64,000 nt of DNA from Desulfatiglandales bacterium (GCA_963662465.1 OY759599.1:96001-160000), one strand, 5' to 3'. Positions 18,001 through 57,000 are shown, counted from the first letter of the stretch. Made by a program: the numbers.

Positions 18001-21000
18001 AAAGATAAGAAAAAGTACTATATTTTTGCGCATAATGACTGGGCCCAATATATGGCGGAGGCGGGTATTTTAGGGCTGGGCTTGTTGCTGGGTGGGGTCG
18101 GGTATTACCTTTTCAAGACCCTCAAGCTGTGGGCCAGGCGGAAGGATGCCTATGCGGTGTGCCTGGGGGTGGCGCCGGTTGTGGCACTTGTTTATATCGG
18201 CCTGCATTCCTATGTGGAATTTACGCTGCATACTCCGGCAAACGTGCTCATTCTGTTGTCCATCATGGCCATCGGGCATGCGGCCCTTCATTTGGAACGG
18301 CATCATCGGCGGGATGTGATGAGTTACCGGTATTACAATCTTCCTTTGAAATATAAGGGCGGGGTGGTGTTGCTGTTGATTCTGGGACTGATCGGGTGGA
18401 CGGGGTATTGGAGTATTCGGCATTTCATGGGGGAGGTGTATTGCAATACGGTGCCTAACAGCACCTTGAACCGGGATAAGCGGCCGCCGGTGGGCGAGGT
18501 GGTGCGGGCGGTTGAGTGGGATTCGGGGAATGCTGCTTACTGGTTTAAGCTTGGATCCGCAGATTACGCAGATTACACAGATGGAAAAGGAAAAGATGTC
18601 TCGCGCAAAGGCGCAAAGGCGCAAAGAGGGGAAAGGCAGGGGTCAGAGGTCAGAAGTCTGAAGTCAGAGGACAGAGGTCTGAAGTCGGTAACAGAAATCG
18701 GCGAAAATCTGTGTAATCTGCGGATAATGGCTTTGGAGAGATCTGTGGAACTGAATCCTTTTGACGCGCAGTACCATCTTCGGTTGGGGTGGGAATATGC
18801 GCATTTGTGGCAGGAAAAGGATTATCATGTGAGATGGCTGCCGGCGGCGGATATCAGCATGGATCGGGCGGCTTATTTTGCGGGGGTGAAGAACCCGCAC
18901 CTGCATCAAGAACTGGGGAATTACTGGACCATGCGGAGCAGGTCGGTGATGCCCAATGATCCATTGCACCATGAGGCGTGGGCGAAGGCTTGTTGGCATT
19001 ACCACAAAGCGCAAAGTCTTGAGACAGGAGGGGCGTTGAAGCGGATGAAGAAGGAAATACGGGGGTATGTTTGGAATTTTTATCCGGATGAAGACTATAT
19101 CGCGCAAGTAATCAATTAGAAAAATTACCCATTTCGGCTCAAGGCCGTTTTGGGTAAAGGATCAAGGAGAAAGACCTTATTTAGAAGGGGCTGAACCGCT
19201 TAAATTTGGCATGGTTGCTCGGCGTGAGAGATAGGGCGTGTTTTGATACACCTTGAAATCAGTTGGTATGAATTGATTTAACGCTTGCGCTCCGGTTCTT
19301 TATGTTATATTTTTGTATAACTATCGTCAAGCGAATGCAAGGAGGAATCAAATGATAAGTGTAACACTGAGAAAGCTTGGTGGATCGGTTGTAATGGCTG
19401 TCCCTGTGCAGATTCTGACTATGCTGAATATCGGTGCCGGGAGCCATGTGAATGTGAATGTTGTAGACGGTAAGTTGGTCATTGAGCCCAGGGCTAAACC
19501 GCATTTCACGCTTGCCGAACTGCTGGCCCAGTGCAGCGATGAAAACATGGCGCTAACCGATGAGGATCGCGAGTGGCTCGATACCCGGCCGGTCGGTAAG
19601 GAAATGCCATGAAGCGCGGAATTCCGGAACGCAGCGATATCCTGCATCTCGATCTTGATCCTGCGCTGGGAAAGGAGCAGCAGGGGCAGCGTTATGTACT
19701 GGTCCTCACCATCTCCGATTTCAACCGTTTTGGGTTGGCGTTGGTTGCCCCTATTACGTTGGGCGGTCAGTTTGCCCGCGAGAACGGTTTCACTGTATCG
19801 ATGATGGGATCGGGTACGAATACTCAGGGCGTTGTACTCTGCAACCAGGTACGGATGCTTGATTTCAAAAAACGCAATGCAAAGGCCATTGAATCGGCGC
19901 CTGAAATCGTTATGGATAATGTCCTGGCTCGAGTCAGGGCATTACTGGAATAGCCATTTTTTCCGCGCAATATAGAAATAGGGGAGTGGATATGGATGCA
20001 CATCGACTTAGAGATGAAAAACATGGCGGGTATTGGCTCATGATTCTTGGGTGCCCTTTACCGGGAAAGCATGACCTGAAAGACCCTTTGGCCGGATTGA
20101 GCGGGCCGTCATTTGCCACCTGTGCCACATGCGAAAATCAGGTCGGGGAAGATGTTGCGCTTGGTGGTGCGGATGGAGATTATAACGGAGCGGAACTCTT
20201 CCCTGATCGACTGACGTGCTTAATTGAAACCAAAGCCGATCCACAGATTACGCAGATTGACGCAGATTAATTGTTTCGCGTAAGGCGCTGATAAGGAGGA
20301 AATAGAAGATAGGAAAGGGAAATAGGAAAGGATAGAAGGTCAGAGATCCACCCCAGACCGGTGGTCCGGGGTCAGGGGTCGGGAATCGGGGGGAGGACTA
20401 GGGGTCAGTAGCCGGTGGTCAGGGAGGGAAGGGGATGGTTGCTAAATCGGCGAAAGATTTGCGGGTTTATAAGAAGGCATATGCGTTGGCTATGGCGATA
20501 TTCCATTCCGAGCAATACCACTGAAGTCAGGCGTCAGCCTTCTCTGAAAGCCACTCATTTATGAGTGCTTCTTCTGGTTTTCTTAACATTTTTGCCTTGT
20601 TTGTGATTTGGGCATACAAGTCCTTATTGATCCCAACGTATCTTTTTTTCTTCAATGAAAATTTAATTTCACTAACCTCCTTGACATCGTGGAATTCCCC
20701 AAAGTCGTGTTCATCCCAGAAGTCAGAGGCGTCATAAATGGATATGTCGTCAAAATTCCTATTTTTTCCCATAACGTCCCCTTTCGCTGCTATTCATACC
20801 CCTTGCGGTCACTATTAGGGCCTTGTTTCCGAGTTTTTTGATAAAGAAAACGGATAAATAACGACCTGATTCGGTTCTGCCGAGGGCATTGTACAAATCC
20901 TCTCCTTCTACTTTGCCCTTTTCCTTCCGGAATATTCTGCAACCGCCGGACAAGATGTCCTTCACCTCAGATGGCAAAAATATTATGCTTCCATGCAAGC

Positions 21001-54000: not shown

Positions 54001-57000
54001 AGCCCTGCTAATGTGGCGTTTGTGGTCAATATTTGTTCTTGGAGAATTGCCGCCTCTTTTTTGAGCCCTTTAAGGGCGGTTTCGGTGGCTCTCAAGTTTT
54101 GGGTCGCCCTGGCGTGACTCAGTGACAAGAAACCTATGACTTCAATGGAAGTCAATAAGACCAGAACGGATACGATGATAACGTACAGGCTTTTGGTAAG
54201 ACCACCGAGTTTTTGCCAGTTCCGGTACAGGTGGGCCACGGTCAAGATTTTGCCGATTTCCATGCCGAGACCCATACACACAATAACGGAAGCATTGCTG
54301 ACAAATACAGACATCAGTCCGTACACGGACATGTATATGGAGCTTCCTGCAACCAGCAACAGACTGGTTGTCACAAGAATGCGGTACATGATTCACACCT
54401 CCCTTTTTTCCGGGAACAAGCTGGCGGGTACTGATTGAAAAACATGACCTTTTTCTGACCATCCGGTTTTGGTCTGATCCGGCCAGGGTTTTTGGTGGTT
54501 TGATCAAGTTCCTTTTTGTCTGGTCAGGTTTTGGTCAGGTTTTGGTCAGGTTCGGTCCAGTTCCCGTCCGGTTTTGGTCAGGTTTTGGTCAGATTCCATT
54601 CTGGTCAGACTGATTCAGGTTTTTTTCGTTTCAGGTTCTTTTCATGTTTCCCGGTTTGGTCAGGTTTTGGAACAGATTCGGGCCGTCTCGGATTGTGATG
54701 GTTCTTCAATGTTTCCTAAAATCTCACAATGCACTTTTGGACCCAAGGATCTGCAATGGCTTTCAGCTTGAGGAGTTCGTCCTTGTCATGACCAGCGCCT
54801 GTTTTGGCGAAAAACAGGGGATTCAGTACTCCATTATTATGGAATCGCTGTAAGGCATAAAGCTCAGCGCCCTTTATGGTTCGCACAACATTTTTCATGC
54901 TTTGTTCATCCACGATCGGTTTTATGCAGGTTGTCCTGAACTCATAGGGTATGCCTGATCCCATGATGTTTTCAATGCTTGCGAGCGTTTGGTCTGGATC
55001 ATATTCTTTCGCGATGGTGGATGGATAGCGGAGAGGATCGGTCTTAACATCCATGGCGATATAGTCAACGAGCCCCTCATCGATCATACGTTTGATGACT
55101 TCCGGCCGGCTGCCGTTTGTGTCCAGTTTGATCAGATAGCCGATCTCCTTTATTTTCGTGCATAACAAAACAAGCTCCTTCCGGAGCGTTGGTTCTCCGC
55201 CGGAAATAACCACACCGTCAATGAAGCCTTTGCGGTTTTCAAGAAACTCGCAGAACGCTTTTTCGTCAAGTCCATTTGAATATCCTGAACCGCCTTTTAC
55301 GAGCTGTGGATTGTGGCAATAAGGACAGGTGAAATTGCAGCCCGAAACAAAGAGCACACAGCTTAATTTCCCGGGATAGTCAATCAGTGAATTCTTTTGT
55401 ATTCCACCGATAATCATTGAATGCACTCCTCATCGATCCGGTTTTGTTCCGCAAGAAAACTTCAGGCCGCCTCAAACACTTTTCTCATATCGTATTCTGC
55501 TTGTTTTCCGTCGTTCCACTGCTTGACAGGTCTCAAGTAGCCAACGACCCGCGAATAAACTTCCGTTTCTTTCCCGCAATCAGGGCAGCGTTTTTGCTCT
55601 CCGTTCAGGTACCCGTGGGACGGACAGATGCTGAAGGTTGGAGTCAGTGTGAAATAGGGAAGCCTGAAATGATTAACAACCTTCTTGAGCAACGCCCTTA
55701 TTGATCTAACGTCACTGACTTGTTCCCCCAAATAAATATGAAGGACTGTTCCCCCCGTATATGTTGCCTGCAATTGGTCCTGTAACTCCAAGGCTTCGAA
55801 AATATCGTCCGTGTAATTTACGGGTAGCTGGGTAGAGTTTGTATAAAAAGGTGCAGCTCCTTTTCGGTATTCCGCTTCATTTGCACAGATGATTTCAGGG
55901 AACCTTTTCTTGTCAAGCATCGCAAGTCGATACGATGTGCCTTCTGCAGGCGTTGCTTCTAAGTTGAACATTTCGCCTGTCTCATCTTGTATTTGGGAAA
56001 TGATTGTGCGGATATGGTCCATGGTTTTGAGGGCAAATACCTGTCCTTTTTCACTTCCGATGTCCCTCCCAAACAAGTTCAGGCACGCCTCGTTCATGCC
56101 GATGATTCCGATGGTTGAAAAATGGTTTTTCCAGTAAAGCCCAGTGCCCTCTTTGATCTGTCTTAAGTAGAATTTTGAATAGGGATAGAGGTTTTTATCT
56201 GTGAAATTCTCAAGGACTTTCCTTTTTATTGTGAGGCTCTCTTTTGCAAGGTGAACAAGCTTTCCCAAATGCTTCATGAAATCATCCTCGCTATCCGCCT
56301 GATATCCTATGCGGGGGAGGTTAATGGTCACGACTCCGATTGAACCCGTCAGGGGGTTCGCGCCGAAAAGACCGCCGCCTCTTTTCAGGAGTATCCTGTT
56401 GTCAATGCGAAGGCGGCAACACATGGATCTTGTGTCTTCAGGCGACATGTCGGACCTGACAAAGTTTGAAAAATACGGAATCCCGTATTTCCCTGTCATG
56501 GCCAGGATCGCTTCAAGCACTGGGTTGTCCCAATCAAAATCTTTTGTGATATTGTAGGTAGGTATGGGAAAGGTGAAGACACGCCCTTTGGCATCGCCCT
56601 CCATCATGACCTCGGCAAATGCCCTATTGATCATGTCCATTTCTATTTGAAAATCGGAATATGTCTCTTTTTGTTCGATGCCTCCTATGATGACACGTTG
56701 GTTTCTCAGAGTTCGAGGGGGGGACAGGTCTAAAGTAATGTTGGTAAATGGGGTTTGGAAGCCGACTCTGGTCGGGACGTTTATGTTGAAAATAAATTCT
56801 TGCAGCGCCTGTTTCACTTGTCGGTAATCAAGGCCGTCATACCGAATAAAAGGGGCAAGAAGGGTGTCAAAATTTGACATAGCCTGAGCGCCGGCAGCTT
56901 CACCTTGTAATGTATAGAAAAAATTAATAATTTGTCCTAAAGCAGGCCTGAAATGTTTAGGTGGTGCACTCTCGACTTTCCCCAGGACACCCTTGAAGCC

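Follow-up and report, generated by a model that had tools for sequence, protein, structure and literature searches.

A 64,000-nucleotide stretch of the genome of a Desulfatiglandales bacterium (GCA_963662465.1 OY759599.1:96001-160000; hereafter the window, with positions counted from its first letter) carries an intact Orc1/Cdc6 initiator gene directly behind 260 bp in which two inverted boxes enclose an AT-rich tract. This anatomy is conserved among related loci, the gene is under purifying selection, and a closed relative holds a complete element of the same family. Initiation by Orc1/Cdc6 is regarded as an archaeal and eukaryotic trait, and we hold, with slightly more confidence than doubt, that the gene and its boxes serve in bacteria as the initiator of an excised element. 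An earlier survey of the genome had described the initiator, the boxes and a recurring neighbourhood; the present analysis adds changes in the box extension and in an initiator motif, BRE-TATA-like promoters, and a truncated MCM.

The initiator gene and the boxes in front of it

The open reading frame at 48017-49273 (+ strand) encodes 418 aa and scores 235.3 bits against TIGR02928 (cut-off 181.3), a model that serves as an archaeal chromosome marker in the cited passage of 10.64898/2026.05.20.726742. Pfam AAA_22, Cdc6_lid and Cdc6_C all exceed their cut-offs, so that a single protein joins the AAA+ domain, the lid and a winged helix at the C-terminus, and the closest solved structures are the archaeal 2V1U and 2QBY chain A, which bears out the survey's finding of a full initiator. 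These structures come from Aeropyrum and Sulfolobus, respectively. The window protein and the whole close clade have the Walker A (GPTGAGKT), Walker B (LLIDEAD), sensor 1 (TN), arginine-finger (DPR) and sensor 2 (GDARKA) motifs of the ATPase, which also preserves the winged-helix motifs QRRFS and GRYG; TQRRFSEI and SKGRYGNTRE of the window protein align with TQRRVSDI and NRGRYGKTKE in the comparison with 2V1U and 2QBY. The lid, which in Orc1-1 proteins bears the MCM recruitment surface, is conserved and can be aligned. The initiator-specific motif reads YRKGIP here as against PFTGLS or PITGLP in the archaeal rows, with YRKGI invariant in 58 of 58 close members. Measured against locus L018, cdc6 has a dN/dS of 0.066 (dS is saturated against four other relatives). 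For six backbone genes, dN/dS ranges from 0.066 to 0.24.

A 24-bp box matrix, from whose training the two sites in the window were withheld, was run over the whole 8.16-Mb genome and returned 15 sites above 17 bits, the two best being the inverted boxes that had been reported at -251 and -90. The left box (47755-47778, + strand; 31.4 bits), an ORB-like core with a purine-rich distal extension, is the genome's top site and is kept in relatives; TTTCCTGTGGAAAC is present at 47766-47779, -251 relative to cdc6. The right box, inverted relative to the left (47927-47950, - strand; 29.0 bits), starts at -90 and ranks second, the next best site reaching 24.6 bits. Between them lie 147 nt (47780-47926) of 73% A+T, a candidate DNA unwinding element whose richest 50-mer (47860-47909) is 94% A+T, a value matched by 3.4e-6 of genome 50-mers. 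This tract contains a second conserved motif, GRGACRACRYTTATAAA (47833-47849, + strand), found at no more than two mismatches in 11 of 32 loci and reversed once. The third box noted earlier at the start codon was also recovered (48024-48039, + strand; 23.3 bits): consisting of the core only, it covers an in-frame ATG and is a candidate autorepression site, and boxes resembling it sit at the cdc6 start in many relatives.

The layout recurs in relatives, as had been proposed. Across 31 loci of at least 37% identity with enough upstream DNA, this one counted, a box pair above 10 bits is present in 26, at spacings of 86-227 nt, which exceeds all 30 shuffles. The exceptions have one weak box (L016), one box (L020) or none (L035, L044, and L006, which has an IS inside the origin), and among five more distant loci the pair occurs in L042 only. 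The earlier label "ORB-like" holds for the core, where the two boxes match 11 and 10 of the 12 positions of the common ORB core TCCA[CG]T[TG]GAAA[TC] as given in the cited passage of PMC4164010, and fails for the G-string, which a C-rich string 3' of the core replaces in the 55 matrix sites. Judged by their letters, the boxes are an ORB variant without G-string, and the 260 bp before cdc6 would act as a replication origin. Archaeal oriC1-type pairs (Orc1-1/Cdc6-1, ORB-DUE-ORB) share the domain order, the ATPase and winged-helix motifs and, immediately before the initiator gene, an AT-rich tract enclosed by inverted boxes; they differ in having the G-string and PFTGLS in place of the C-rich string and YRKGIP, whereas here the host is bacterial and no whole MCM was found.

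A family of integrative elements and its remnant in the window

In the closed relative G494, a complete 68-kb element is integrated at tRNA-Asp, with integrase and att repeats, and also holds cdc6 with boxes, an SSB-like gene, HU, defence cargo and DnaN, the last in this element only. It has no MCM and no Replic_Relax match, and no mating-pore genes were found among the 56 of its 77 ORFs that were scanned. The family is therefore one of integrative elements, as seen on G494 and not on the copy in the window, so that the survey's proposal of a mobile family is upheld there while the present copy is a remnant without att sites. Bacterial ICE/IME-like elements and defence islands that target tRNA genes are similar in their tyrosine integrase and tRNA att repeats (G494), ArdC, RadC, Replic_Relax, DnaN and defence cargo, among it BREX, SIR2-HerA, CBASS-like and type I R-M genes; unlike them, this family has an Orc1/Cdc6 initiator, no recognised mating-pore set, and archaeal-type promoters on part of its backbone. 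Bacterial mobile DNA has other archaeo-eukaryotic replication proteins, such as the MCM helicases of prophages and the Cch protein of staphylococcal cassettes, but there it is the helicase that is carried, whereas here initiator and origin occur without one. Initiator and origin also travel together in archaeal plasmid or integrated orc/cdc6-origin cassettes (haloarchaea, Methanohalobium pMETEV01, Methanothermobacter pCaT2), which, in contrast, depend on the archaeal host MCM; the cited passage of PMC4010727 treats it as established that captured elements bring along archaeal origins next to a cdc6 gene.

The copy in the window is a remnant broken at both ends, at about 21150-57180, which corrects the earlier bounds of 20500-54400, and it can probably no longer excise. 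Its broken left end (21151-24453, - strand) consists of SprT-like and DUF6094 methyltransferase gene fragments followed by a 155-aa gene, RadC and ArdC-N. The neighbouring backbone is conserved, as reported, with genes recurring across relatives such as L018, L019, G306 and G494. A backbone operon (30404-33845, - strand) of a 195-aa gene, a PD-(D/E)XK nuclease and a DUF87/HerA-like ATPase, with a TATA-like promoter of the 195-aa gene at about 33869-33886, recurs in L008, L018, G306, G477 and G494; matches of the ATPase to VirB4, TrwB and CedD are sub-threshold only. Next comes cargo, an HNH nuclease and a SIR2-HerA anti-phage pair (38677-42837, + strand) without TATA-like promoter. The SSB-like backbone gene (44246-44638, - strand; TATA-like promoter at about 44682-44699) has, by inspection, a short beta-rich domain and an acidic tail; it has no Pfam, NCBIfam or PHROG match, is 59-83% conserved and frequently adjoins cdc6. 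A 386-aa backbone gene (44745-45905, - strand; TATA-like promoter at about 45927-45944), by inspection with a hydrophobic N-terminus and a coiled-coil-like C-terminus, has homologues in L005, L018, L019, G306 and G494; its nearest Atlas cluster is half bacterial with Nanobdellota the commonest phylum, at a weak recognition score.

Beyond cdc6 lie three conserved genes (49807-51645, + strand) for a cysteine-rich protein (49807-50604), a 118-aa protein and a winged-helix protein (51232-51645; TATA-like promoter at about 51148-51165). The C-terminal winged helix of the cysteine-rich protein is kleisin-like; fold matches within this gene group are all weak (E 0.02 and 0.007) and of winged-helix type, so that a role like that of TFE or kleisin is a lead and not a result. 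When two backbone families were run as profiles against solved structures, no match fell below E 0.06. There follow a small nuclease-like backbone gene with PHROG nuclease matches (51704-52162, + strand; TATA-like promoter at about 51661-51678) and a Replic_Relax gene (52534-53466; PF13814, 79 bits, cut-off 25.3) with its upstream gene (together 52534-54389, - strand); Replic_Relax is also present in L018, L019 and both G306 copies, five loci counting this one. At the right end are nrdG and nrdD (54716-57181, - strand), the latter without its first 122 residues; nrdG follows the backbone in L019, and nrdDG flank cdc6 in L026. A multi-copy IS (57182-59187), without the 8-bp target duplication seen at many other copies, marks a deletion that cut nrdD and a tyrosine integrase (59197-60267, + strand; 5' end lost). 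The survey had found neither integrase nor att sites on this copy; the integrase overturns the first statement for the window, although it does not match that of the G494 element and probably belongs to a neighbouring remnant, and the second stands: the window holds no tRNA, contig 100-190 kb holds no tRNA fragment, and the presumed island ends share no exact repeat longer than 14 bp. Empty-site mapping in five same-genus genomes was uninformative, left and right flanks lying on different contigs.

Carriers of cdc6 number 9 of 209 genomes of the class and 4 of 401 of the phylum, one genome (G067) having five copies over the cut-off; in other phyla, searches returned the centre genome alone among 301 and the centre plus one weak match among 251. 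All five named genome loci are bacterial; of 120 listed proteins, 4 have a taxon, and these too are bacterial. Among 8000 candidates there are 1446 related clusters at E 1e-20, of which the best 119 show 70-92% identity, and homologues of this type form one deep clade, with copies damaged by frameshift (L007, L041) or by the IS in L006. Metagenome loci have bacterial-looking neighbours (HU, ExbBD, IS3, RemA), and the 49807 gene has Atlas clusters that, to judge by the few for which there is a record, are 100% bacterial. The 60 listed plasmid matches to cdc6 are all archaeal, at most 30% identical and none of this clade; on plasmids the 44745 and 49807 genes had no match and DUF87 distant ones only. 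Phage records gave no match, and viral contigs two weak partial matches to cdc6, none to two backbone queries and one 31% match to MCM. Trees of the donor lineage do not settle the sister group; an AU test over 31 rows does not reject the clade with Nanobdellota (p 0.79), which is not thereby shown.

Archaeal-looking promoters and the helicase partner

The cdc6 gene and about five backbone genes appear to have BRE-TATA-like promoters at archaeal spacing. That of cdc6 (47974-47991, + strand), with TTTAAATA at 47984-47991 and the ATG as the 26th base after it, lies at the 99.8th percentile of 1006 host upstream regions under a matrix not trained on this site. In 17 of 27 cdc6 promoters, whose column conservation is partly circular because most sites trained the matrix, an ATG follows the TATA-like box at 20-27 nt, and in only two does the box overlap a sigma-70 TAnnnT hexamer. 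The Pyrococcus promoter has, in the cited passage of PMC6640164, a BRE RRAAA and a TATA WTTTAAAW whose end lies 23 bp upstream of the start site. It is matched at 11 or more of 13 positions before 17 of 35 cdc6 genes and before 6/8, 5/8, 9/15 and 3/4 homologues of four other backbone genes, vs 175 of 1360 host genes, in counts that include kin and are not independent. Held-out backbone genes lie above the host 95th percentile in 16 of 79 sense vs 6 of 79 antisense regions, and cargo, integrase and dnaN genes in 0 of 13. Half of the backbone genes have no promoter signal (ArdC 0/10; four others 0), and archaeal controls are mixed (Thermococcus plasmid 6/20, Methanohalobium plasmid 1/17). A sigma-70 scan gave a 9/12 candidate overlapping the cdc6 TATA-like box and 16 sites vs 11.3 +/- 3.4 by chance, decisive neither way. 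TBP was found in none of ten carrier genomes searched and TFB in none of five, so that bacterial expression of cdc6 from such promoters is hard to account for. The promoters raise the question of which host expresses the element.

The known loading partner of Orc1/Cdc6 is missing as well, because no MCM was found in carriers: the ATPase domain was absent from five of five carrier genomes, and the N-terminal domain from nine distinct other carriers searched and one more, most carriers being draft genomes. The survey's statement that MCM is absent needs qualifying for the genome, which holds a truncated MCM, an N-terminal fragment, about 104 kb away. This fragment lies in a patch of 31-34% GC, its best named relatives are Woesearchaeota/Nanoarchaeota (52-57%) and one bacterial record (60%), and it adjoins a homologue of the 386-aa backbone gene with the same BRE-TATA-like promoter type. 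The host has two dnaA genes and a skew minimum near 5.5 Mb, far from the island, and these positions rule out the island origin as the chromosomal one. Island depth in the likely source run, available as contigs only and so uninformative on copy number, gave no sign of extra copies.

The main rival reading, unlikely though worth weighing, is that expression and replication of the element take place in some archaeal host that supplies TBP, TFB and MCM; the element would reach anaerobic bacteria again and again, insert there at tRNA genes, gain defence cargo and decay. The enriched BRE-TATA-like motifs before cdc6 and four other backbone genes point this way, as do the sense excess confined to backbone genes, the failure to find TBP, TFB or a whole MCM in carriers searched, and the Woesearchaeota-like fragment beside a backbone homologue. 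However, no close homologue that carries a name is archaeal, metagenome neighbours and 49807-gene clusters look bacterial, the complete G494 element encodes DnaN and HU and occupies a bacterial tRNA gene, and the promoter evidence is weakened by the silent half of the backbone, the mixed controls and kinship. A broader proposal, tentative and somewhat doubtful, is that the whole family crosses the archaea-bacteria boundary: the archaeal initiator, its origin and the TATA-type promoters would serve in one kind of host, and DnaN, HU and integration at tRNAs in the other, with a probable root near Nanobdellota (Woesearchaeota). If the family is restricted to bacteria, Orc1/Cdc6 must load a non-MCM helicase, and an element-encoded factor must read TATA-type promoters without TBP. 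The conserved promoters point either to transfer that still goes on between archaea and anaerobic bacteria or to an undescribed bacterial mechanism of reading them.

Proposed replication of the excised element and other possible roles

As the initiator of an excised bacterial element, cdc6 with its 260 bp would form the replicator-initiator pair of a family of integrative elements that target tRNA genes in anaerobic bacteria, a pair that would go back to an archaeal ancestor. One Orc1/Cdc6 may bind each inverted box, its winged helix contacting the palindromic core and its altered initiator-specific motif the likewise altered distal extension. Binding would open the AT-rich tract and start replication of the excised circle, and Orc1/Cdc6 on the box over the start codon may repress its own gene. 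Since an MCM is lacking, the element would have to engage a bacterial-type replisome, most likely through host DnaB aided by the SSB-like protein and, in some members, the element's own DnaN, or alternatively through its DUF87 ATPase. A selected bacterial family with initiator and origin and no MCM offers a one-gene, 260-bp system that asks whether Orc1/Cdc6 opens DNA alone or loads a bacterial helicase, and in changing the box extension and the initiator-specific motif together, nature has run a specificity experiment of its own.

Orc1/Cdc6 could instead have become a DNA-binding regulator or a partition or organising factor, with the boxes as operators and replication passive or via Replic_Relax. 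The box overlapping the start codon in many members, the missing helicase partner and the five Replic_Relax loci are consistent with such a role, which is nevertheless improbable given the preserved ATPase motifs, arginine finger and sensor 2 included, the preserved extreme AT tract between inverted boxes, and a complete G494 element that has cdc6 and origin and no Replic_Relax match. Very improbable is a defunct leftover of a single ancient transfer that has persisted by hitch-hiking: the truncated ends and the pseudogenes among relatives fit it, but the low dN/dS of six backbone genes, the 1446 clusters and the single deep clade do not, and purifying selection contradicts it for the family, while for this copy it may still hold. 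Archaeal contamination or misassembly, suggested by one phylum match (G007, 30% identity) on a short contig without boxes, is scarcely credible for an island flanked on both sides by bacterial genes on a single closed contig, containing host IS copies, spanned at 46713-56554 with zero differences by a run contig (probably from the source sample and so not independent), and belonging to an element carried by a second closed genome, G494.

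The initiator and its candidate origin boxes

The open reading frame at window positions 48017-49273 encodes a 418-residue protein that passes the TIGR02928 model (235.3 bits against a cut-off of 181.3), contains the AAA_22, Cdc6_lid and Cdc6_C domains and has archaeal-type proteins as its closest solved structures (2V1U, E 6e-47; 2QBY chain A, E 2e-45), which upholds the survey's finding of an Orc1/Cdc6 gene. The two inverted boxes reported upstream were found in the sequence where they had been placed. Scored with a 24-bp matrix built from relatives, from which the window's own two sites were excluded, they outscore, at 31.4 and 29.0 bits, every other site in the 8.16-Mb genome (the runner-up has 24.6). 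Between them lies a tract of 73% A+T whose best 50-mer is 94% A+T, a level met by 3.4e-6 of the genome's 50-mers. The third box, claimed at the start codon, is present as a core box at 48024-48039 which covers an in-frame ATG. The inverted layout is indeed common to relatives: both boxes exceed 10 bits and score better than all 30 shuffles in 26 of 31 loci (at least 37% identity and enough upstream DNA, own locus included, L012 and L014 being near-copies), and are absent as a pair in 5. Five further loci are more distant, and of these L042 alone has both boxes. The motif GRGACRACRYTTATAAA, located within the AT tract at 47833-47849, recurs in 11 of 32 loci, once in reverse, and may be the binding site of some factor or a second TATA-like box. 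In a distant subclade (L038, L039 and L042), the ATG following a TATA-like box upstream of cdc6 starts a three-codon frame whose stop lies just before the start-codon box.

The boxes had been called ORB-like, which is accurate for the core. The published common ORB motif is TCCA[CG]T[TG]GAAA[TC][GA]AAGGGGT (PMC4164010), and the window boxes agree with 11 and 10 of its 12 core positions. However, archaeal ORBs have a G-string after the core, whereas the element boxes have a C-rich string there instead. The winged-helix motifs of the element initiator are nearly archaeal, and its initiator-specific motif is YRKGIP in place of the archaeal PFTGLS. The winged helix would read the ORB core and the initiator-specific motif the flank. 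The paired change of box flank and protein motif fits a co-adapted, working pair.

A family of integrative elements in bacteria

Among 8000 candidates, a protein search with the initiator gave 1446 clusters at E 1e-20. Identity to the best 119 relatives is 70-92%; the four that carry a taxon are all bacterial. The survey had placed relatives in bacterial records, and a genome scan agrees (five loci, every title bacterial), its sensitivity being low because it missed known carriers. Within the class, 9 of 209 genomes carry the clade; a single-protein search of the phylum identified 4 of 401 genomes, one of them a distant 30% match. One carrier, G067, has five cdc6 copies over the cut-off. The 60 plasmid matches listed of 399 are all archaeal with at most 30% identity, and no match to the initiator was found in phage records. 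The element initiators form one clade (SH-aLRT 97), which includes three deep members without known genomic context.

The proposal of an integrative-element family, with a complete relative carrying an integrase and dnaN, is borne out by the closed genome G494. Here a complete element of ~68 kb lies between tRNA-Asp gene repeats with an integrase at one end. Shared with the window are cdc6 with its boxes, an SSB-like gene, a PD-(D/E)XK/DUF87 pair, RadC, ArdC and several genes without a name. DnaN, HU, an SNF2 helicase, a RepB-type primase, BREX and further defence genes come in addition; the scan covered 56 of the element's 77 ORFs. The primase is perhaps cargo, since a transposon adjoins it. 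No DnaN homologue was found in the other loci compared. In the carrier genome G306, an XPB-like helicase and a DUF790 gene lie in the vicinity of the element and not far from an integrase (contig C291, L065:12221-14915). The dN/dS of cdc6 is 0.066 and that of five other backbone genes is 0.075-0.24; the element genes are under purifying selection. On sequence grounds, a family of bacterial integrative elements bears a real, selected archaeal-type initiator and a candidate origin.

A literature search, in which subscription journals were thinly covered, found neither Orc1/Cdc6 origins nor TATA promoters described on bacterial elements. PMC5333045 and PMC4010727 treat ORB-DUE origins, the recruitment of MCM and element capture; PMC3914693 treats extra initiator copies from integrative elements, with no bacterial case in the portion covered. 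The portion covered of 10.1101/2024.09.03.610885 mentions Orc1/Cdc6 solely as distantly related, through the winged helix, to plasmid initiators. TIGR02928 serves as an archaeal marker in 10.64898/2026.05.20.726742; the genes of its cross-domain clusters are not named in the portion covered. An Asgard satellite has been tied to a sulfate reducer (10.64898/2026.08.12.739948), and PF13814 is counted among relaxase models in PMC11104534.

Archaeal-type promoters, a suggested donor lineage and an MCM fragment

Between the right box and cdc6, relatives share a conserved A-rich run followed by TTTA(A/T)ATA. Pyrococcus promoters have a BRE (RRAAA) at -36 to -32 and a TATA box (WTTTAAAW) at -30 to -23 (PMC6640164). 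Column conservation over the 27 cdc6 promoters is partly circular, as most sites trained the matrix; 17 of them have an ATG 20-27 nt past the TATA-like box, and in 2 that box shares bases with a sigma-70 TAnnnT hexamer. With a held-out matrix (23 relatives), cdc6 and the genes at window positions 33258, 44246 (SSB-like) and 44745 (a 386-residue backbone protein) reach percentiles of 99.8-99.9 among 1006 upstream regions of the host; of the 47 island ORFs, 8 exceed the host 95th percentile, two of these through plain runs of A. The published consensus occurs upstream of 17/35 cdc6 genes versus 175/1360 host genes, and ahead of homologues of 44745 (6/8), 44246 (5/8), the winged-helix gene 51232 (9/15), 33258 (3/4), ArdC (2/10) and 28161 (0/4). 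When the near-copies C24 and L018 are excluded, the host 95th percentile is exceeded in 16 of 79 sense regions, in 6 of 79 antisense regions and in none of 13 genes for cargo, integrase and DnaN. Archaeal plasmid controls are uneven (6/20 and 1/17). The archaeal-type promoter signal, as read from sequence, is real for a subset of element genes. No TBP was found in ten carriers searched, nor TFB in five.

Sequence affinities suggest an archaeal donor. Woesearchaeota, Pacearchaeota and Nanobdellota supply most of the named best matches of the deepest clade member (36-40%), and Nanobdellota is the commonest phylum among the 14 members with a record in the Atlas cluster nearest to gene 44745, recognition being weak. 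Initiator trees leave the sister group open; an AU test of 31 rows does not reject a clade with Nanobdellota (p-AU 0.79).

No MCM ATPase domain was found in the five carriers searched, nor an MCM N-terminal domain in ten other carriers or in 400 other genomes of the phylum, most carriers being drafts. The genome itself has two identical MCM N-terminal tiers (contig 39485-40342 and 8092431-8093288) that end before the ATPase domain; the fragment cannot act as a helicase. Both sit within a 12-kb duplication (contig 29146-41170 = 8082092-8094116, 99.99%). The best named full-length relatives are Woesearchaeota/Nanoarchaeota proteins (52-57%); one bacterial record reaches 60%, and relatives without a name are 74-78% identical. 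The fragment lies in a 31-34% GC patch and adjoins a 26% homologue of 44745, and hints at a sister element with an archaeal origin. This homologue has a TATA-like promoter; the region spans contig 39485-43803 (L070:9485-13803; copy 8092431-8102686), and the MCM tier is cut where a toxin-antitoxin pair joins. The duplication also holds an integrase, a TOTE-type primase, a TrwB-like ATPase and a TacA/GNAT pair; another 10 kb (contig 91899-101959) is repeated at the contig end.

Proposed replication of the element, and the resident island

Most likely, though by a modest lead over even chances, the initiator and origin pair would start replication of the excised element in bacteria, the initiator would repress its own gene via the start-codon box, and a bacterial-type helicase would serve it. 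An element living in an archaeal host and repeatedly delivered to anaerobic bacteria would account jointly for the promoters, the missing MCM and the decayed copies; however, there is no archaeal carrier among the named close homologues, and DnaN and HU in the complete element fit poorly, leaving this a possible but distinctly less probable account. A purely regulatory initiator is weaker and rather improbable; a dead relic, set beside the purifying selection, has a slim chance. Contamination is scarcely credible for an island flanked on both sides by bacterial genes in a one-contig genome. Under replication in bacteria, the family poses a testable paradox: which helicase is used, and how its promoters are read.

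The cdc6 site is ruled out as a chromosomal origin, since the cumulative skew has its turning points near 1.75 and 5.5 Mb and two dnaA genes over the cut-off lie at 4.83 and 5.77 Mb (contig 4827626 and 5768164). G494 likewise has two dnaA genes over the cut-off, at two sites.

The island, previously bounded at 20500..54400, stands with revised limits. Its left end is at ~21150, where SprT-like and methyltransferase genes are broken off, and its right end is a multi-copy IS (57182-59187) without the target duplication that many sister copies have; this IS has cost NrdD its first 122 residues and an integrase its 5' end. The resident copy is a remnant. The survey had reported no integrase, att or MCM on it: a search for att repeats or a tRNA fragment again found none, whereas a 5'-cut integrase lies past the IS and the MCM fragment elsewhere in the genome. 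A separate remnant occupies window 59197-64000 and L002:1-2200: it holds an integrase truncated at the 5' end, HTH genes and a TubC_N protein, and after it come IS-rich DNA and a split SNF2/PLD helicase, as far as contig 180 kb. Within the island, a cysteine-rich protein (49807-50604) has a C-terminus weakly resembling the fold of the ScpA/Scc1 kleisin winged helix, with no SMC gene recognised nearby, and the DUF3150, DUF1257 and AAA ATPase genes at 25030-27982 are found in none of the other element copies compared. Window 1-19119 is a polysaccharide/O-antigen region with short repeats and a strong positive GC skew of up to 0.42, and it stops at the island.
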